From: Octopus sinensis
Lineage: Eukaryota
Direction of reading: 5' to 3'
Assembly (NCBI RefSeq): GCF_006345805.1
Contig: NC_043015.1
Coordinates: 22,692,001-22,756,000 of the forward strand
DNA: 64,000 nt
Both the position numbers and the translations under genes were made by a program. Of this stretch, positions 4,962-64,000 are shown in pieces; within the stretch, counting starts at the first letter, position 1, and each line of letters opens with the position of its first letter. The notes under the pieces were generated by a model. It did no database searches and was not told the origin of the DNA. It saw only the letters and a program-made list of their open reading frames with translations.

Positions 4962-5088
4962 TATATATATATAGTAGTACTAACAGAAAAGAGGAATTTC
5001 GGATGTCCCCACGTGGTGAATTGTAATGTATATAAGAAATTAAAAAAGGAAAATACGCACACTTACATGGTTATAATATAATTTTTAA

Positions 5089-5125
5089 TATATCGACCGG
5101 TTTCGCAATCGCTATTCATGATATA
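5089..5125 (-). ncRNA. Minimal type I hammerhead ribozyme, A3-U8 core variant
   Basis: Minus strand: tatatc AUGAAUA gc gatt gc GAAA ccgg UC gatata. Stem I 6 bp, stem II 2 bp, palindromic stem III, GUC site. Confidence 0.65.
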
Positions 5126-5156
5126 ATGTTTAATTTATATGAATATATATATTTTC

Positions 5157-5621
5157 TTAAGAAGAAATTTGGTCCATGTTGTTTGTAATGAAATTCACGA
5201 GTGCACATTTTTCTATATGTTCACTAAGAGGAATTTGTCTGTATTGCGGGAAACGGATTTGCTCCTTATGCAGAGTGATTCTCTTCCTCAAAGTTAAACT
5301 CGTTTGTCCAATGTACTGATGACTGCAACCCGAGCAGGTTATTACATAAATTAGGTTCTCAGAGGCACAGATGAAGCTAGTTTTAATTGTGAACCTCTGT
5401 TCTTGTTTGAAAAGGAAATCCGAGCCTTTAAGCAGGTTGGGGCAGATTCCACAGTTTGGGCGTCCACATTTTTCAACCGTTGGTTTCGCGGTTGTTTTGT
5501 AAAGCTTCGCATTTGTTAGTAGTCTCTGGCGATATGTCTTTTTTTTGCATTTGATGAGTTTGTGTGTTTTCAGGATGTCGTTCATTTTTGGATCTCTAGT
5601 TAGTAAAGGGAGAGTTTGCAC
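5157..5621 (-). pseudogene. Penelope-type GIY-YIG endonuclease fragment
   Basis: CGRPNCGICP Cys motif, then NLIYVITCSGCSHQYIGQTSLTLRKRITLH..PLSEH (GIY-YIG with CCHH residues typical of PLEs). Confidence 0.85.
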
Positions 5622-6103
5622 AATAGTGTTGAATGCCTCACTGTTCCCACACTACAGACAAATTCCTATTAGTTAACACATAGAAAAATGTGCAGGTAAC
5701 ATCAAACCAAATGTTACAGTCTTCCCTTTCTACCAGTGCAAAGACCCAATCTCTCAACTAGAACGCTTAAATAAAGAAACATTTTCATTGAAAAATACAA
5801 AACGCGTCTTAATATGCACACATAACCAACTTTTATATTTTTACACATTACATCACTGTACATAAATCCCCTACTAAACAAGGTCCCTTTTTTAAAACAT
5901 GTCCCCTTTCTGTACACATATTTATTCCCCACCCAAAACCTAAACAGTTATCTCCATTACACACACAACAATAACAATAATAACAACCAATTACCTCCCT
6001 TTACTTGTCAGCTTGTAAATTCAACCAATCGTGAATTTCATTACAAACAACATGGACCAAATTTCTTCCCAAGAAAAAATATATATTCATATAAATTAAA
6101 CAT

Positions 6104-6140
6104 TATATCACGAATAGCGATTGCAAAACCGGTCGATATA
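6104..6140 (+). ncRNA. Mutated copy of the 5089-5125 hammerhead
   Basis: tatatc acgaata gcgattgc aaaa ccggtc gatata; core changes U4>C and G12>A. Confidence 0.55.
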
Positions 6141-6212
6141 TAAAAAACCATATTATAACCATGTGAGTGTGCGTATTTTCCTTTTTTAATTTCTTATATA
6201 TATGTATATATA

Positions 6213-12476: not shown

Positions 12477-14603
<2,127 letters not shown>

Positions 14604-14620
14604 CATTGTTATTATTATTT

Positions 14621-21450: not shown

Positions 21451-22255
21451 CTATATATAATATTGTACTTATAAAATTATATACTTCGTATTCATTTTTT
21501 ACCTTTATTGGTTTCACAAGCTGGCTATTTTACAAAATCTTATATAGTTTTTATCCTTAAATTGTTATATATATATATATATATAAAGAGAGAAAGAGTG
21601 TGTGAGAGAGAGAGGGGTAGCTAGAAAAGCAGTGACAGAAAAGAAATGAAATTATTATAAATCGATATCCGCCTATCAATACTTATGACAAATTATTGCT
21701 CGAATTAACCTAATTCTCAAATTTTTCTTCCTTGTGCAAATGGAAATGCGGTGTTGAAATTGTCCATCCAAGGTTGCTAGAGACGCCATCTGATTCAATG
21801 GGTTTAGATAGATCACAAATGGAAGATGGACAAGCAAATTAATTGGCGTTACGTAAGTATTCTCAAATGACGTCAAATGATATGCTTGTCCACAGCTGTC
21901 ACTCTCTTTCTCTCTCTGTATGTATGTGTGTGTGTACTTTTACCATTTCTTCTGGCTTCAATTAACGATGTTTTAAGATGCATTTGCTAAAACAATGAAG
22001 CAGTGTTTCTATTACCTTTAAGTCAGTCACAGAGTTTTGTGATAAAAATGAACAAAGTGCGCTGAGGTTTTATGACATATCTAAGCAATATATACATTCG
22101 TGATTTTCTAGTTTCCATACCTGAAATTTAACCTTCATTGTATTCGTTGAAACACTCGAAAGATAATTAAGTACGCATTCTTGCGCAGCCCCCTATCACA
22201 CACACACATGGAGGTATCTATATCTTACCCAGTTTAATTACATGTATGTATATAT

Positions 22256-22287
<32 letters not shown>

Positions 22288-22748
22288 ATTAATCAATATA
22301 GGGTGGCAAAAAATTTTGTAGAATTTTTTTGCCACCAGCGGCCTAGTGGGAAAAAATTAAATAGTCATAGACCATTTTTAAGTTCAACATCACAATCAAG
22401 GAACGGCCATAATAGGCCATTCACCCACTAGAAATAACAGCCAAAAGCTTCAACCGCAAAATAACATCAATTCCGTAAACCAGGAGAAAATTAAAAAACA
22501 TTTACCCTGTAATTGGCTATTTCTAACTGATGAATCTAAGGGCCTATGGTAGATTGGCTTGATTTAATTTAATCAGGTTAGTTTACCATTAAACAGTAGA
22601 TGAAACGGTGCATCGTATAAGAAATTACAGGGTAAATGTTTTTTAATTTTCTCCTGGTTTACGGAATTGATGTTATTTTGCGGTTGAAGCTTTTGGCTGT
22701 TATTTCTAGTGGGTGAATGGCCTATTATGGCCGTTCCTTGATTGTGAT
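22288..22748 (+). mobile_element. (TA)n-inserted non-coding element: 126 bp perfect inverted repeat enclosing a hammerhead ribozyme
   Basis: Arms 22389-22514 and 22623-22748 are exact reverse complements; (TA)n on both sides. Confidence 0.85.
22519..22625 (+). ncRNA. Type I hammerhead ribozyme with extended stem II
   Basis: atttctaa CUGAUGA atcta[..]tagat GAAA cgg tgca tcg UA taagaaat. Inner 19 bp hairpin (22546-22564/22571-22589) pairs fully with five G:U wobbles on the + strand. Predicted cut after 22617 (GUA). Confidence 0.8.
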
Positions 22749-23759
22749 ATATATATATATATATATATATATAAACAGAGGGAGTGGAAGACAGAGAGAC
22801 ATTAAGCACACGCACATGTTCACCCTCATGCACCAACATATGAACACACACGCATACATACAAATACGTATTTATCTATCTATGTATATAACTATCTATA
22901 TATCTATCCATCTCTCTCTCTCACTATATATATATATATATATATATAAATTAACGACTGTGTGGTTTCTTTGTTAAACACGCACAAACACACGCTTTTA
23001 GATTATAAGTAGATAAAGAGTTTAATTTTCTACGTAAACGTTCTATGCGATCGCTTCACATAGCCTAACATAACTTTCTCTATTTATTTTACACGTGAAT
23101 AGATTCTATCGCAGAGTTTACTTCCGAATGAATTAAATATGAAATCCCAAGTATATCTACTCTGTTTCAGATGTACTACATTAAAGTTGCAGTAACCTGG
23201 TTTCTATACTGAGAAATGCATCAATATGAAATTATTCAATGCACTGGAGAAGAATAATGTTTCTCAAAATTATATACTATTTAATTTCATTGCCTTACTG
23301 ATGAATATTATGATCATCTTATTATATTTACTTAAAGATTTTGGTAGGTTTGATGCAGTGGTTCGATCTAATAACACAAGTTTAGTCTCTTACTTAACCT
23401 AATATCAGTTCGAAGTTATATTTCTGCTGATATTTCACTTCAGTATATGCAGTGGTTTTTAGTAAGACTTACATATGATTCTGTTATTGAACATTGCATT
23501 TTAGATCATAACGGTTATCAGTGGGAAATGCTCACAGAAGTCATACCTTGTACAATATCCACTGGCGCATATGTCTCACAGTCATTTGCGATACTGAAAA
23601 TAAATATCTGATACATTTTCCACATGTCTTTCCGGATATGAGCTATTGGTGTTTATAGATCTATAGCATATCAATAATTGATCTCGTTGTACATTTAGCC
23701 ATAATTACGATTTGCTATAATTAAGCCATATGTTCGTCTGATGCGGTTGCTATTATGCT

Positions 23760-38590: not shown

Positions 38591-38595
<5 letters not shown>
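38028..38595 (+). mobile_element. Probable Helitron-type 5' fragment
   Basis: Starts TCtatatataaagttgaagttgtctatgtg, like the other Helitron-type heads. No 3' CTAG terminus seen. Confidence 0.4.
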
Positions 38596-39880
<1,285 letters not shown>

Positions 39881-40665: not shown

Positions 40666-43460
40666 GTAGTTATGCGTGAATATGTGGGGGATGTACGTAT
40701 GTCTGAGCGTGATTGTTGGTAGTTTTCCTTCCGTGTATGTCTGTGTTCTATGATTTAAACCAGTTCTATGCACTGGAATATATATTTGGATCGTTGTTAA
40801 TGTAGGGGTAAAATTTTTAAATGTCCAAGTGCTCTTTTTAGGTTTTCGCAACATTGGTAACCTCTTTTAAAAGTTTACAGTTGTTGATTGGTGTTACGCT
40901 TTATTTTGGATTAAAACATAAAAGATCACGTGACGTGTTAAAGTAACGCGAGACTGCGTAACGAAACAAATATAAATGCAAACGACTCCATTTGTTGAAG
41001 TTTAGTTTTATTCCGATTCGATTCAAGTTTTTGATAAAGGAAGAGAGCAATCCAAAATTGTTTCAGCTGAAATTTGATTGTTTACTCAAAACCTCGCGTT
41101 ATTCTATCATGATCTCACGTGATCTGCCTTGTTTTAATCAAAACTGGAAACGAATATTGAAGTTCCATGTGACAGGTCCAATTACCTTTGAAGGAAATTC
41201 CCTTAACATAAATCAAATGATAGCCTTAATCCATTAAGAAAGAAATTTTATCTACCAATTAGCTTTGGGCAGTCGTTCGTTATTAATACACACACGTATG
41301 TATATATATATGTTTACATTCATGTGTGTTTGCGTGTGTGTGTGTGCGCGTTAACCTATAGAAAACTGCCTCTAATCCGTCACGATGGGGATGTTGTTTT
41401 GCTGAATTCTACTTAGAATGTTCTGCCTGAAAATTGTTTCAAAATGATGGTAAGCAATATATGTACTAAATTATCTTCAGATGAGGATTTTACATGGTGT
41501 TTGCCCCTTTTAGACGTACATATTCCCGTATTGCTGAATTATATATAACAAGTTAAAGAATCTACCGTAAGCGGAAATGACACCATTAAAACTTTCGTAA
41601 CAATATTTTCCAACGTCAGGATATGTTTTTAATGAGTGTCACGAAATAAAATCACCGACAACTGCAGATAAAATCTCACCTACACCACCTGCAAACTAGA
41701 CTGTATTTATTCAGTCTTGCAAATGCTGAAAGTCCATTCCAAAACTCAGCAGTGTCTAGCAGGTCTCTGAAAGATGCTCGCCTCACAGATGTCAGACAAA
41801 TTTTTGTCCCTTGCTAAAGCGGTTCCCTACGAGCGATAAAATATTATTTGGTTTTCGGAAAATTCTTAATAATTGTGAGTCGATAAGAAGACATCTTTCT
41901 GATTTACCAGCCAAATTAAAATCAACTTTTTGCTGCACCAACTATTTAAATCCTTTACAAAAGACTTGACGCGAACAACGTGTGCACTAGTGCATCTAGA
42001 GTTACCAAGTTCTTCAACCGGAAACCTGAACGTTTCAGACCACAAACTCTCCATTTTTACGAATGTTCCTTTCGATTCCCCTAAATAATGTACTCCATAG
42101 ATGACACCTCTCCTCACCTAACATTCCTATCACATTCTTTAAAGGATTATCTTATTTCCAATAAGAGCCACCCCCACAACATATATTTTCTCGCACTATT
42201 ACTATCATCACCAACATCGCAAAAATATAACAGTCATGGCTAGGGACCTATCCCAATATATTCATTCTCTCAACCTTTAGTTTCAATAGATACCTACATA
42301 GGAGTGACCACTAAGGCCAAGCAATTTCTATTGGGAATCTACTCATCTGTTACAGATACCAATAGGCTTACACGCAAATGATTCAGAAGATATATTTCTA
42401 AATTCTATGAAAATAGAATTGCTACCATCTGACAAAGCAAAATTGAATGTCTATGGTGTCCACTTGACTTGCTTTTCTCGTATCAGTAACTTCATGTCAC
42501 TCGAATGTAGGAGTTGACACATTTTATTAGCTCTGTCATCTCCTTCTGTCGAATACCCTCCCTCTCTTCTTTCTCTACAAGAATGCAATATATGTTTTGA
42601 TCTTGATCTTAGCTATTGAAGAATTATACTAGTTTCTCCTATATCACTATATCCGAAATTAAATGTAGAAACAATCACTTATCTTCGTAACAACTATTGA
42701 TCGTTACGCCTGCAGAGCGTGACATTGATCAGCTTCAAATTTGAAACAAGTTGATTTATTCTTGAAGAAGACGAATCGTGTAAAATTTTAAGAAGGACTC
42801 TTCAATGGAGTAATGTTTTCATTGTACATATCGAATTTAATTGATTGGGATTATAAAGGTGCAGGCAATGAATAACAGATAAACTGATAACTGGAAAAGA
42901 AGATGATTATAAATTCATAAAATACATGTAGATAGAAAAGAGAGAGAGAGAGAGAGAGACAGTGCTAGATAGCTAGACAGAGTGAGAGGAGGGGAGAAAT
43001 AAAAGACATGGGAGAGAGCGAAAGGAACGGAAGGGCAAAAGTGATATTAGAGAACAGACAAATATCAAAAAGGCGATCTCAATGTAGATGTGGGGTCAGT
43101 GTTCGAATCGTGATATGAAACGTGAAAACGCATAAACAACGAAAATGAAGAAGTTAGTTACTAGAATCAAAGAAACGATAACTCTCAATAGGGAGAGTGG
43201 CTGTAAGTTAGTGGTAGCTTTATAACATATGACAACTGTATTTAGCAGTAGCAGCTTTGAGTAATATTCGTGTCAGAGATCTAGAAATTATTAATCAATA
43301 TATTTTAGTAATTTCTTTATATTCTGGGTGAAATTGCCTTACCAACATACATACCAACAACAAATAATTAGATAATGAATGTCTACTAATTACTATCGTT
43401 GTCTTTTTACATACACAAAGTTGCCTAGTTTCGTATAGTATGTTTACTTGTGTCCACTTT

Positions 43461-43646
43461 ACAATTATTTGACAGGTTTTATACAATCAAACGCTTAAAA
43501 GGTGACGCGCATGAAGTGTCCGCTGGCCGTTCGTCATCAATGTAAATTTACATACATAGAAACATACACGCATACCTCTAATTACACACACAAACAAGTT
43601 TATGTCCGAGGAACTATCAATCTATCTATCTATCTATATATCTATC

Positions 43647-43699
<53 letters not shown>

Positions 43700-43744
43700 G
43701 AATATACGTATATATATGCATGTGTCTGCATCTCTGTATATATA

Positions 43745-43791
<47 letters not shown>

Positions 43792-43824
43792 GATGCAGAC
43801 ACATGCATATATATACGTATATTC

Positions 43825-43885
<61 letters not shown>

Positions 43886-44069
43886 TAGATATATAGATAG
43901 ATAGATAGATTGATAGTTCCTCGGACATAAACTTGTTTGTGTGTGTAATTAGAGGTATGCGTGTATGTTTCTATGTATGTAAATTTACATTGATGACGAA
44001 CGGCCAGCGGACACTTCATGCGCGTCACCTTTTAAGCGTTTGATTGTATAAAACCTGTCAAATAATTGT
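43461..44069. repeat. ~610 bp near-perfect palindrome centred in a (TA)n tract
   Basis: The arms are reverse complements; mirror-image ORFs 43502..43888(+) and 43642..44028(-) put the centre at ~43765. Confidence 0.95.
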
Positions 44070-44076
44070 CAAATAA

Positions 44077-45456: not shown

Positions 45457-47501
<2,045 letters not shown>

Positions 47502-48951
47502 ATAAGTGAATAAATAATCAGACCTATTTTGTTGTCTCAAGATATATCAAAGTTAAATTTGCTTCGTGGAGGATTTGAGAACAGAACAATAATATGAATA
47601 AAGATTTAGATACAATGTAAAAAATAGTTGAGAGATGTTAGTTTTCTAGCCTATTGACTTCATGGTTACATATTTTATCAACATCAGTGGAGTGATGATA
47701 TTAATGTTGACCTCAGTGTTATTTGAAATCGAAACATAAGGTGCCGAAATAAATGGAGTAAAGAATTTTTGTTACCGATATTTTAACGATTTTCCCAGAT
47801 CAAGATGCTTCAACAATCTTCACTCGTTTACATCGACCATAGTATTTGAGTGTATATTTGTTAATTTGATACCATTTCTGTTGGAGGGCAAAGAAGATGT
47901 TGACGAAATTTGAACTCTAAATGTAAAGATCCTAAACAAATAGAGTTAGAAAATTATTTGGGAACCCTAACGAATTTGTCAGCTCACCGTCCTAACGATG
48001 AGAATAATTGTAAGTTCATGATTATACAGGAGGCGAAGCATTGTATGCAGGTATCTTTTACGGTTATATAGATAGTATCTATTGGATAATACGTATTTTA
48101 TGCAACTTGGAAGAGGATGCAATGTTGACAATTGTGTCAATTGATGTTGGATTTTAAAAGGATGCGTCTTAATATAACAGCGTGTTTTCCAATTCTCTCC
48201 TCGCCAGGTAGGTGTATTTTCAAGTGGAATTTAGGTTAAGAAGTCTTAAGTAGAGGACGGAATATTATTGTCTTGGTATAGCATTTACGGATTAGTATTT
48301 CAGATGAAACTTTGGATGGATAATGGTAATTTGATATAATTTTAACATGATAATTGGAATTTTGCATTTTGATATGGGTATATCTTGGATATTAGAGATT
48401 GGTATCTGAAAACGAGGACAAAATATTGTCAGATTTATGATGGATATTTTCATTTAGTGATTTGAAGAAAGAACTTTCTCACTGGCACTTCAGGTTGAAG
48501 AATGAATCTTAGCAGTAAAAGAAATGGGTTTTAGTATCTGGCATTTTTTATGGAAAGGATTAGCATTATAAGGTAAAGGCGGGATATTTGCATTGAAATC
48601 TAGAGAATAGAGATTTAAATTCCCATATAAGTTTGTAGGTTGGTATTGTTATATACTTATTCGATTTTGAAATTCTAAGATGGGAATTGATGTTTGGTTT
48701 ATAAAAGAGAGAGATGGGGTACATATTTTTAGATGGAACTTGGAAATTAGAATATTAAGAACAGACACCCGAATTTCGAGTTGGGTTCCGAAAATATGGA
48801 TTGTGAACGGAATTTGTTAAGACGCATTGTATTTGGTAATTGTAGATTGTTATTGCAATAACGATTCAAATTCATCGCGAAATTTTAGGATGAAGATTGT
48901 TTTCGAAATTGATAAATGGCTGCTATTTTAATGTGTTTACAGGGCTTCAGA

Positions 48952-49702: not shown

Positions 49703-50049
49703 GTATATATAATATGTATATATGCATACATCTATATGTATATATATATATGTATATATATTATATATATGTATATATGCATATATCTATATGTATATAT
49801 ATATATGTATATATGTATATCTATATGTATATATAGCAAGCCTGGACCTATCATAAATAAACGACCCTACCTCGCCTAAGCCGAGCAGCCAACTGATCAA
49901 CATCAACGAAGCACATGGGTGAGTTTACATATATTACATCCGTAACTGTCAGACTTTTACGAATTGCATTTCGGGGAAAGAAAAGTTTTTTCGCAATAAA
50001 GTTGGCTGCTCGGCTTAGGCGAGGTAGGGTCGTTATTTATGATACGTCC

Positions 50050-50098
50050 AGGCTTGCTGATGAATACAGAGGTATGAAATCGCAGGTGATACAAGTCT
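50050..50098 (+). ncRNA. Type I hammerhead ribozyme
   Basis: aggcttg CUGAUGA atac agag gtat GAAA tcg cagg tga UA caagtct. All core nucleotides are present and three stems pair. Predicted cut after 50091 (AUA). Confidence 0.85.
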
Positions 50099-50370
50099 AT
50101 ACTTTTAAATGTCTTACTTTGAAAAATTGCATTCGGTGGGATTAGTAAAATTTTTGGTAGAAATGACTAATTTTGTCCCTCTTAGCGTGTGGCATGTATG
50201 TATAATAATGCCCTCTATATATAAACTATATGTATATATATATGTATATATATGTGTGTGTATATATATGTATATATATTATATGTATATATATACATAT
50301 ATATGTATATATATAAGTATATATACATGTATATATGTATATGTATATATGTATATGTATATATATATAG

Positions 50371-50405
<35 letters not shown>

Positions 50406-50839
50406 GTATATATGCATATATCTATATGTATATATATATATCTATATATATATATATGTAATATATATATATATATATGTATATATATGTATATATATAT
50501 GTATATATGCATACATCTATATGTATATATATATATGTATATATATGTATATATATATGTATATATGCATATATCTATATGTATATATATATATGTATAT
50601 ATGTATATCTATATGTATATATAGCAAGCCTGGACCTATCATAAATAAACGACCCTACCTCGCCTAAGCCGAGCAGCCAACTGATCAACATCAACGAAGC
50701 ACATGGGTGTGTTTACATATATTACATCCGGTAACTGTCAGACTTTTACGAATTGCATTTCGGGGAAAGAAAAGTTTTTTCGGAATAAAGTTGGCTGCTC
50801 GGCTTAGGCGAGGTAGGGTCGTTTATTTATGATACGTCC

Positions 50840-50888
50840 AGGCTTGCTGATGAATACAGAGGTATGAAATCGCAGGTGATACAAGTCT
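50840..50888 (+). ncRNA. Type I hammerhead ribozyme, identical second copy
   Basis: Same sequence as 50050-50098. Confidence 0.8.
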
Positions 50889-51296
50889 ATATTTTTAAAT
50901 GTCTTACTTTGAAAAATTGCATTCGGTGGGATTAGTAAAATTTTTGGTAGAAATGACTAATTTTGTCCCTCTTAGCGTGTGGCATGTATGTATAATAATG
51001 CCCTCTATATATAAACTATATGTATATATATATATGTATATATATGTGTGTATATATATGTATATATATATGTATATATATGTGTGTGTATATATATGTA
51101 TATATATATGTATATATACATATATATGTAATATATATATATACATATATATATACATATATATATATCCATATATATATGTATATATATATGTATATAT
51201 ATATATGTATATATATTATATATATACATATATATATATACATATACATATATATATATACATATATACATATGTATTTATATATATATGTATGTT

Positions 51297-58440: not shown

Positions 58441-59712
58441 CGAGGGGCGTTCAATAAGTAATGCCCCTGAACCACTTCCCATAGCAATAGAGCAACGAAA
58501 CTTGGCACAGGTATTAGTCTTTTTCTATATAGGAACCACCCAGAGGTACACATTTCTCCCATCGTTTGATGCAGTTCTGGAGACCGTTTTCGTAGAAGAC
58601 CCCAGCTTGGTCCTCCAACCACGACGTGACTTCAAAAATCAAGGCTGTATCATCTTCTGGGAAACGCTTTCCTTTCAAAAACAACTTAATGGCTGGGAAG
58701 AGGTGAAAATCAGAGGGTGCAAGGTCAGAAGAGTAGGGGGATGGGGGAAGAGTTCATAGCCGCACGCCTGTGCCTCTGATCTGGCGACACGCGAGTTGTG
58801 GACCGGAGCGTTGTCCTGCAGGAGGAGGATGCCTTTGCTGATCTTGCCCCGTCTCTTGGTTTCGATAGCTTCTCTTAATTTCCTCAAAAGTGAAACATGA
58901 TAGGCTCCTGTAATTGTGGTACCCTTTGCCAGGAAATCTGTCATCACTACTCCGTCCTGGTCCCAGAAGACTGTGAGCATGACCTTGCCAGCGGAGGGCT
59001 GCACCCTTGCCTTCTTTGGAGGAGGTGAGTCATGGTGCTTCCACTGCATTGACTGGGCTTTGGTCTCTGGATCATAGTGATGGACCCAGGTCTCATCCTG
59101 TGTAATCAGTCTTTTGAAAAATGTTGACTCATCTTCTTGGCACATCCCTAAATTCTTGCTTCTGGAAAAGTGTGAGCAACCTGGAAATCCATCTGGCAGA
59201 CACCTTTTGCATATGCAAATGGTCATGAATGATAGTTTCCACAGACCCGGTACTAATCTTGACCTCATGGGCTATTTGGCGAATAGTTATGCGTCGACCT
59301 TCCAAAATGGCAGCCTCAACTTGACGGACAGATGCCTCATCAATGGCAGAAGGGGTGCGACCAGATCTGGGAGCTGTTTCCACAGAGTTCCGACCATGTT
59401 TGAATACACGATGCCAGCGTTTTACAAGGTCATATGATGGGGCATCATCACCATAAGTTACTTTCATTTCATTAAATGTCTGCTGTGGTGTGCGTTATTT
59501 CAAATACGAAAACCGGATCACTGCTCGACACTCAACATGCTCCATTTCCCACTTGACTCATTTCAAACACCTGTAAATCAGAAACCACAATTAGTTCGGA
59601 GATGTAATTTTCCACTTAATCTATAGAGATATAAATAATTGCACATGAAAAATTTAAGCTAGATCAAACAAAGGCAAGTGGGTCAGAGGCATTACTTATT
59701 GAACGCTCCTCG
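58441..59712 (-). mobile_element. Mariner DNA transposon, near full length
   Basis: TIRs cgaggggcgttcaataagtaatgcccctgaaccactt and aagtgggtcagaggcattacttattgaacgctcctcg; TA dinucleotide TSD at 58439-58440 and 59713-59714; 1272 bp. Confidence 0.95.
58530..59545 (-). pseudogene. Frameshifted mariner DD34D transposase
   Basis: HTH region VKRWHRVFKHGR..PRSGR, then ITQDETWVHHYDPE, LLQDNAPVH and HPP(YSPDLAPSDF across a frameshift); split over ORFs 59129..59467 and 58675..59268. Confidence 0.9.
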
Positions 59713-62731: not shown

Positions 62732-64000
62732 AACATCCAAAACAGAATTAAAAAATTAGAAAAGACCTGTCGATTCTTAATGAAATCAGCAAACAATCAA
62801 CGCTACGCAAATATAACATCACAGAAAAAGATTTACTGGAGATAAAAGAAAAGCTGAAGCAAGATATCCTTGCCAAAGCTCAAAGGATCCGCCGGCGCCT
62901 CCCTACTATGTTCAAGGCATTTACTGCAGTGATATCGCAAAGGCTGAACAAGCACCTGGACGAAAACAAACTGTTCCCAGAAGAGCAGAAAGGATGCCGC
63001 AAAGGCTCATATGGATGTAAAGATCAACTAATGATTAATAAAGCCATAACTGAAAACAGCCACAGAAAGAAGAAAGGTCTCAGTATGGCCTGGATTGACT
63101 ACAAAAAGGCGTTTGATAGCATCCCCCACACATGGATCCTCGAAACACTAGCCATTAACAAAGTAGCACCAACAATCATAAAATTCATAGAGCACTCTAT
63201 GAATAAATGGCAAACAGTCCTACACCTCCAAACAAAAGAGGGACTCATGAAAACCAAAGACATCCCCATCAGAAGAGGAATATTCCAGGGAGACACGCTC
63301 TCTCCACTCCTTTTCTGCTTGGCACTGTCACCTCTATCTGATATGCTAAATAGAACTGGATGCGGATATAAGTGTTACGGCAAAACGATCAGCCACCTTT
63401 TATATATGGATGACCTAAAACTATACGCTGCAAATGACAAACAGCTGGAAACACTATTAAAGACAGTTCATGGATTTACCAAAGAAATAGATATGAAATT
63501 TGGATTAGAAAAATGCGCCAAAGTAACCATGAAAAGAGGAAAACTAGTTAAGAGTAACAATATCACACTAGATAAAACCAATGAAATAAAAGAATTAGAC
63601 CAAAGCCAAACTTACAAATACTTAGGAATCCATGAACTAGATAAGACACAACACACACAAATGAAAGAGAAAATAAAAAAGAATATTATAGACGAGTTAG
63701 ATCAATACTAAAAACAGAGCTCAATGCTAAAAACAAGATAATAGGTATCAACACTTTAGCTGTCCCAGTTATAAGTTACAGCTACAATATCCTTAACTGG
63801 ACACGAAATGAACTGTCCAAAATAGATAGGAAAACAAGAAAAATACTGACAGGATCTAGGATGCATCACCCAAAATGTGACATAGAAAGACTATATATAC
63901 AACGTATAGAAGGTGGTAGAGGCCTTATACAGCTGGAAAACTACTATAAAATAACCACCATAGGACTGCAAAAATATCTACTTCAGAAGGAAGGAAAACT
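62732..64000 (+). mobile_element. Third R4/Dong-family element; RT domain, internally deleted, runs off the window
   Basis: ORF 62908..63711: EEQKGCRKGS, WIDYKKAFDS, GIFQGDTLSPLLF, YMDDLKLYA. A frameshift in the A-run near 63675-63680 continues EYYRRVRSILKTELNAKNK. Starts right after (TAA)n. Confidence 0.92.

Follow-up and report, generated by a model that had tools for sequence, protein, structure and literature searches.

A head-to-head retrozyme insertion with a hammerhead loop in Octopus sinensis, read against its family

Architecture of the insertion and its hammerhead

The window, that is, the whole stretch of 64,000 nucleotides of Octopus sinensis DNA analysed here, carries a 461-bp insertion (22288-22748) between two (TA)n tracts (Table 1). 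Monomer positions were numbered from the first base after the predicted ribozyme cut, with a natural copy from locus L025 as the reference. The total left arm corresponds to monomer 6-236 in inverted, minus-strand orientation (231 nt) and starts 5 nt past the predicted cut, and the total right arm corresponds to monomer 386-490 followed by 1-131 (236 nt); monomer 386-490 is absent from the left arm and 132-236 from the right. Both the perfect 126-bp inverted repeat and the longer inverted left copy starting about 5 nt after the cut had been described in the initial annotation and were confirmed, the repeat arms being 126 nt each, 100% complementary and separated by a spacer of 108 nt. Near-equal arm lengths, a post hoc observation, were found in 7 of 89 loci compared with 2.3 expected (P = 0.008). 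The kilobase around the locus has a GC content of 33%; no ORF of at least 120 aa is present at the locus, and an ORF for RT and GIY-YIG is absent. The window locus contains one hammerhead, many siblings contain several, and the window copy falls outside the active-copy definition of at least two consecutive hammerheads given in the available text of the preprint 10.64898/2026.07.22.740005.

Table 1. Features of the insertion and its flanks in the window.
Feature	Position	Strand	Basis
(TA)n target, left side	22249-22287		Sequence
Unpaired tail, monomer ~132-236, long 3' end	22288-22388	-	Alignment; family ends cluster at 231-241
Left arm of inverted repeat, monomer 6-131	22389-22514	-	Alignment to monomer
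TT overlap (2 nt) at head-to-head junction, monomer 6-7 with 386-387	22513-22514		Aligned segments overlap by 2 nt
GGCT retained upstream of stem I	22515-22518	+	Sequence compared with family arrays
Type I hammerhead	22519-22625	+	Sequence, folds, covariation
19-bp stem II extension with five G:U pairs	22546-22589	+	Fold; pair table
Self-complementary stem-loop III	22605-22616	+	Duplex and hairpin energy prediction
Right arm, monomer 6-131, ending at short 3' end	22623-22748	+	Alignment to monomer
(TA)n target, right side	22749-22773		Sequence

Contigs from four sequencing runs were compared with the locus at 100% likeness, and none lay over 22518-22525, a filter that would also drop contigs differing at 22525 in individuals that may differ. 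Among the contig pieces listed, none bridged the junction, and the individuals may differ from the assembly. Many other joints between the arms appeared in this comparison, with sides of <30 nt that give them little weight. At window 22088, near the element, the A of the window is read as T in three sequencing runs, which reflects either an allele or an assembly error.

The spacer was initially annotated as a type I hammerhead, and this assignment was borne out by motif, fold and family covariation. The type I order of CUGANGA, GAAA and NUH is present and nearly invariant in ~400-435 monomers, with N7 free. In the window copy, the core consists of CTGATGA (22527-33) and GAAA (22602-05), with the predicted cut after A22617. 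Stem I pairs 22519-26 with 22618-25 and contains an A:A mismatch at 22525, the base of stem II pairs 22534-38 with 22597-601, and stem III (22605-07 with 22614-16) has 3 bp and a 6-nt loop. Rfam scans with E values up to 1 and up to 10 gave no hammerhead match, and the ribozyme call therefore rests on motif, fold and covariation; the long stem II may explain the non-match.

The stem II extension folds far better on the + strand (z -6.35, 0/200 shuffles as good) than on the - strand (z -2.41), in agreement with the strand bias and the five G:U pairs noted initially. The constraint at the RNA level that had been proposed was supported for the family by compensatory changes in stem I and the base of stem II. 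In an alignment of 94 sequences (the window copy and 93 of 113 references), both sides of a pair had changed in 36 cells compared with 10.3 in shuffles. The covarying pairs number two in stem I and one at the stem II base, and therefore represent about three inherited events. Two stem II pairs are broken in 45/75 and 40/75 distinct rows, and the G:U pairs of the extension seldom vary across the family. For stem-loop III, a 12-bp duplex between two copies was predicted at -17.5 kcal/mol compared with -0.2 as a hairpin; a short stem III with a palindromic loop suits dimeric hammerhead cleavage in the available text of PMC4209133.

Stem I, which had been described as self-complementary, is incomplete in the window copy. 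A22525 replaces a family T and occurs in 1/404 sampled monomers, the window copy only; it is a mutation or an assembly error. The last 3 nt of stem I also belong to the right arm, and the stem I pairs have probabilities of 0.00 in the predicted arm-to-arm RNA. Because of this private mismatch and the loss of stem I pairing in the arm-to-arm RNA, the window copy is likely a poor ribozyme and is predicted to self-cleave poorly.

Other features were noted in the window. A second, unrelated type I hammerhead-like motif occurs at 50045-50100 and 50835-50890 in a ~790-nt tandem duplication with TA-rich spacers, and this pair is possibly another retrozyme or pLTR family. LINE-type reverse transcriptase fragments lie at 12693-14618, 46137-47546 and 62752-63711 (the first two 94% alike), mariner-like transposase pieces (Transposase_1, HTH) at 58675-59494, a ~615-bp palindrome (97%) around a TA core at 43458-44072, and a ~620-bp tandem duplication with internal inverted 93-bp pieces at 38591-39880.

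The retrozyme family and its head-to-head members

The 2.7-Gb genome was searched with a 26-nt motif, which gave 3,684 exact matches; the first 100 fell in 35 loci, from which ~1,300 loci were estimated. Among the scored candidates, matches to the element were obtained at 324 places. The unit of ~490 nt is arranged in tandem (period 491 with 5.5 copies in L027), and arrays reach 18 segments. The family fits a non-LTR retrozyme as defined in the available text of PMC7229834, although its unit length lies slightly above the 150-450 bp of low-GC units described for such elements. Homopolymer indels are frequent among the copies, which indicates that the assembly contains errors.

A total of 143 loci were surveyed, of which 35 were taken in genome order, 78 from a list of ends (100 of 417 listed, 80 of them new, minus two duplicates of L097) and 30 from element matches. 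In the last set, L090 was ranked by its likeness to the window copy, and other loci so ranked were excluded. Arms under about 18 nt were missed in this survey. The head-to-head layout was observed in 108 of the 143 loci (87/113 without the element-match set), with 34 single-armed loci and 1 of another kind. The outer ends fell at 128-137 and 231-241, ~105 nt apart, in 89/108 head-to-head loci, and the same two-end pattern was found in 20/25 loci of a subset that was not selected on its end. The (TA)n sequence adjoins 55 of the 62 family 3' ends checked. By contrast with these fixed ends, the junction ends are spread over the whole monomer, and the joins comprise 62 overlaps, 9 blunt ends and 37 inserts among the 108 loci. 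Complex multi-piece junctions were noted in L113, L115, L134 and L148.

Fixed ends with a one-sided tail of ~105 nt constitute a PLE-like layout with an inverted 5'-truncated copy. The link to inverted Penelope pLTRs, which had been drawn from the window alone, is thus supported by the head-to-head, tailed layout of the family. A TTGATT motif and a predicted hairpin precede both fixed 3' ends (window 22292-22402; monomer 98-131 and 184-236) and may represent a duplicated signal that is recognised in priming.

Divergence between the two arms within a locus was 0.9%, compared with 2.7% between loci. A subfamily haplotype is common to both arms in 64/80 loci, the other 16 differ in one column, and random pairs agree in 17%; both arms therefore derive from one template lineage. 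This sharing equally fits the same RNA molecule, the same source locus or later gene conversion. In a variant-sharing test of rolling-circle copying, rare letters occurred in all monomers (41), some (48) or one (392), which fits a single template without proving a circle. The insertion had been called recent from its identical arms. Youth is supported, as the window copy belongs to the youngest subfamily and 5 of 82 compared loci hold a monomer without substitution to it apart from the private change. The identical arms themselves say little about age because they are common in the family: arms without substitution were found in 47/88 loci including the window locus and in 46/87 others.

Junctions, the predicted cut and the origin of the inversion

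Junction ends fell at monomer positions 1-30 in 39/216 cases compared with 13 expected. Arms stopped at their first pass of positions -2 to 30 in 25/150 cases compared with a background of 4.6%, and at later passes in 2/63, 2/26 and 1/12. Counted per locus, both arms stopped near the cut in 9, one only in 6 (5.5 expected) and neither in 54, and the excess lies in the loci in which both arms stop there. The two arms ended within 30 nt of each other in 38/108 loci (permutation mean 15.6, maximum 30); in 14 of these loci the matched ends lie immediately 3' of the cut, and in 2 immediately 5'. Among unmatched ends, 15/140 lay near the cut compared with 10.3 expected (P = 0.09), or 13/106 compared with 7.8 without the element-match set (P = 0.047), a weak trend at most. 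Genome-wide inverted-repeat patterns gave 61 loci within ~30 nt 3' of the predicted cut, 16 loci within ~30 nt 5' of it (two of them at the cut itself by eye) and 40 loci in the next window 3' (~11 with one end in 12-34 and one seemingly unrelated, by eye). Anchor sensitivity was 0.76 for the 3'-of-cut pattern and 0.88 and 0.85 for the other two. The drop across the cut is about fourfold, and the rise over the next 3' window only ~1.5-fold.

These results suggest that ribozyme-cut RNA ends bound some cDNAs, the cut being sometimes limiting and not required. A role of the cut end is supported for a class of siblings other than the window type, those with both arms ending immediately 3' of the cut; stops of one arm alone near the cut occur at the background rate. 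In vitro, cleavage was unnecessary for a PLE, hammerhead mutants had no effect on insertion and no reads ended at the cut, as described in the available text of PMC11167929. Part of the pile-up could stem from a T-rich tract or from stalling at the folded ribozyme. A hairpin at positions 11-39 was also considered as the cause of the near-cut joins; their end pairs follow no fixed register and 9/14 carry inserts, which argues against the hairpin, and a sequence effect of the T-rich tract near 11-39 is still compatible with the data. As a separate observation, the arms of a perfect head-to-head join at C1543:12313-12340 both end at the predicted cut, or 2 nt ahead of it via TATA.

At the window junction, position 6 is joined to 386-388 via the TT overlap, and the left arm stops 5 nt from the cut while the right arm starts 4-6 nt from stem I. 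The initial annotation had placed the breakpoint at stem I and had proposed that a cDNA at the ribozyme-cut 5' end annealed via stem I and continued on the other strand. The proximity of both ends favours this proposal, as do nearly the same join at two other loci (on C5 and C18) and the joins of L056 and L058, where a near-cut end is joined through an 11-nt inverted overlap elsewhere in the monomer; annealing of the near-cut end therefore does occur. The retained GGCT speaks against the switch, since a switch would join seamlessly and drop it, and with GGCT and the overlap at the join the junction does not coincide with stem I. The seamless join was found in 0/2 and 0/3 matches of two genome-wide patterns; the matches were the window locus, the C5 locus and an older C18 copy, in which a near-cut end is joined to 384-388. 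Sibling junctions at other positions had been named in the initial annotation as a refutation of the switch, and this outcome was observed: the window-type junction occurs in 0/108 sampled head-to-head loci, or in 1 on a loose definition. A cDNA made from cut RNA would also lack the 5' strand of stem I, so that a second cDNA would be needed anyway. The stem I-directed switch is largely refuted and is now considered very unlikely.

By a rough estimate, about 2-3 joins of the kind sought with the two genome-wide patterns would arise by chance among ~900 inverted loci; the count of three fits chance, and the tight clustering at 384-388 is unexplained. The C18 copy (L204:785-1745, 22.11 Mb) belongs to an older subfamily of ~75-80% identity; it shares both outer ends, is flanked by (TA)n and has a window-type junction with a 4-nt overlap.

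The window copy is probably a short, young retrozyme insertion in which two cDNAs were separately primed by a Penelope-type enzyme at cut (TA)n ends and joined at their tips. Two separately primed cDNAs are likely because each arm holds sequence that is absent from the other. A PLE protein would cut both strands of (TA)n, and each end would prime at an internal site, at ~131 or ~236. In the window, the first cDNA would start at 236 and stop at 6, and the second would start at 131, read through the cut site on circular or uncut RNA and stop at 386-388. The two tips would then be end-joined with no need for stem I pairing, and the loop would contain the hammerhead for no other reason than that the second cDNA extended one ribozyme-length beyond the first. 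For some siblings, run-off of both cDNAs at a 5' end left by ribozyme cleavage is likely, followed by trimming of 0-35 nt. Both cDNAs would be limited by a linear, cut RNA, and circular or uncut RNA would permit read-through and arrays. Through read-through on one arm, the window copy falls in the unmatched junction class, and a run-off at the cut for its left arm is indistinguishable from background.

The reading with two primed cDNAs builds on the family itself, its head-to-head layout, fixed outer ends, (TA)n flanks, junction scatter and shared haplotype, all demonstrated in the survey. It also agrees with the available text of PMC11167929, in which a PLE protein in vitro cuts both strands at AT-rich DNA and reverse transcription starts at two internal sites bounding the tail. 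Several points count against it. The three loci clustering at 384-388 do not follow from it, target-site duplications are unreadable in (TA)n, and the tail of ~105 nt exceeds the 30-40 nt of the PLEs described in the available text of PMC8557442. In addition, none of 50 PLE loci has similarity to the monomer, and the mobiliser is deduced from the architecture.

Self-priming of a single strand folded back at a palindrome has been proposed for Adineta Penelope elements, and the available text of PMC3846280 takes palindromes at inverted junctions as self-priming. The 38 siblings with closely matched arm ends, several of them at small palindromes, point in the same direction. For one folded-back cDNA, however, the arm geometry is impossible in 27/89 siblings and likewise in the window copy, with its arm-specific segments; several palindromic joins without a spacer loop would be better fitted by annealing of two strands. 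A fold-back origin is regarded as extremely unlikely. Alternatively, the inversion could be a later DNA rearrangement or break repair in a direct tandem insertion. Long AT-rich repeats are fragile, and the few multi-piece junctions could be of this kind, but random events would neither leave two fixed (TA)n-adjoining ends in 89/108 loci nor produce inversions at three quarters of the loci; this origin is judged improbable. Long-read chimeras can yield perfect palindromes, and the frequent homopolymer indels attest to assembly errors, so an assembly or long-read fold-back artefact has to be weighed as well. An artefact is hardly credible given the unequal length of the arms (a 100-nt tail on one of them), the two flanks of unique and dissimilar sequence, and the same rule with different junctions at >100 loci, many with diverged arms.

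Candidate mobilisers and comparison with known systems

No similarity to the monomer was found in 30 GIY-YIG loci and 20 loci of the window's own PLE family, and 0 matches were obtained with a pattern that combined the same core and a short stem II. PLE protein matches near siblings lie outside the repeat. An autonomous PLE family in the same genome has the layout of the retrozyme with a 36-nt tail, and its four head-to-head pairs each have one long and one short end, which favours the reading with two primed cDNAs. The window itself carries a truncated PLE at 5026-6203, with a GIY-YIG fragment at 5160-5651 (-), between 178-bp inverted repeats and ending at (TA)n; it belongs to a large genomic family, and its 3' region contains a motif that resembles a hammerhead but has a non-canonical core. 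In L179, L180, L189 and relatives, PLE frames are intact (about at least 780 aa, RT and C-terminal GIY-YIG), end at (TA)n and are accompanied by a hammerhead-like core, TTGATAA. At L109:2420-5566 (C1, 135.49 Mb), an inverted piece of the retrozyme (219-324), which continues where the other arm stops (327), is directly joined to the 3' end of a PLE that carries a canonical hammerhead. This chimera is ambiguous between co-insertion and an older neighbour; it may be the latter because its PLE part (best 94.6%) is more diverged than most relatives (up to 97.5%).

Each of the components, namely retrozymes, inverted pLTRs and tails, was known already. No report of head-to-head tailed retrozyme insertions or of a junction footprint at the cut was found in the literature listings and available texts searched. 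The word 'inverted' is absent from the main text of PMC7229834 and occurs in the available text of the preprint 10.64898/2026.07.22.740005 only in a reference title. It is tentatively proposed, as a reading that is plausible but short of probable, that the family is a record of ~900 junctions in which Penelope machinery primed one RNA twice, 105 nt apart, with cut linear RNA giving short matched palindromes ending immediately 3' of the cut and circular RNA giving long homogeneous arrays that stop anywhere. If true, the genome itself would provide direct evidence for the insertion of whole retrozyme arrays by PLEs and for a shaping of the template by hammerhead cleavage in vivo. The formation of inverted pLTRs, the role of the PLE hammerhead and the retrozyme mobiliser are treated as open in the available texts of PMC8557442, PMC7229834 and PMC11167929. 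A single locus does not settle these questions, and the family is a useful test bed: its junctions, which number in the hundreds, are short, young and mappable, its priming ends lie at two fixed positions, and the number of matched junctions drops across the predicted cut.

In LINE-1 twin priming, reverse transcription is primed from both ends of the target, and the cDNAs are connected through microhomology, which results in an inversion. Twin priming inverts an upstream part of the RNA, and the 3' end is not duplicated, whereas the same 3' region is present in both retrozyme arms, each of which begins at a fixed internal site. Metazoan non-LTR retrozymes, in the available texts of PMC7229834 and 10.64898/2026.07.22.740005, resemble the present family in their AT-rich tandems, one type I hammerhead per unit, thousands of copies and presumed mobilisation by PLEs, and likewise have a stem III that is short, with a palindromic loop, a form suited to cleavage as a dimer (PMC4209133, available text). 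Their units are 150-450 nt, compared with ~490 nt, a 19-bp stem II extension, the head-to-head layout and two fixed ends here. The same preprint, in its available text, favours local amplification for arrays, whereas the arrays here look inserted whole. From EN+ PLEs, the retrozyme differs in having no RT/GIY-YIG ORF, a longer tail (~105 compared with 30-40 nt), arms that are often multimers and no homology to the PLE families sampled in this genome. As described in the available texts of PMC8557442, PMC3846280 and PMC11167929, EN+ PLEs likewise combine a direct copy with an inverted, 5'-truncated one and bear a tail at only one of the two ends. Their targets are also AT-rich or (TA)n, their junctions contain palindromes or microhomology, and a hammerhead lies upstream of their 3' ends.
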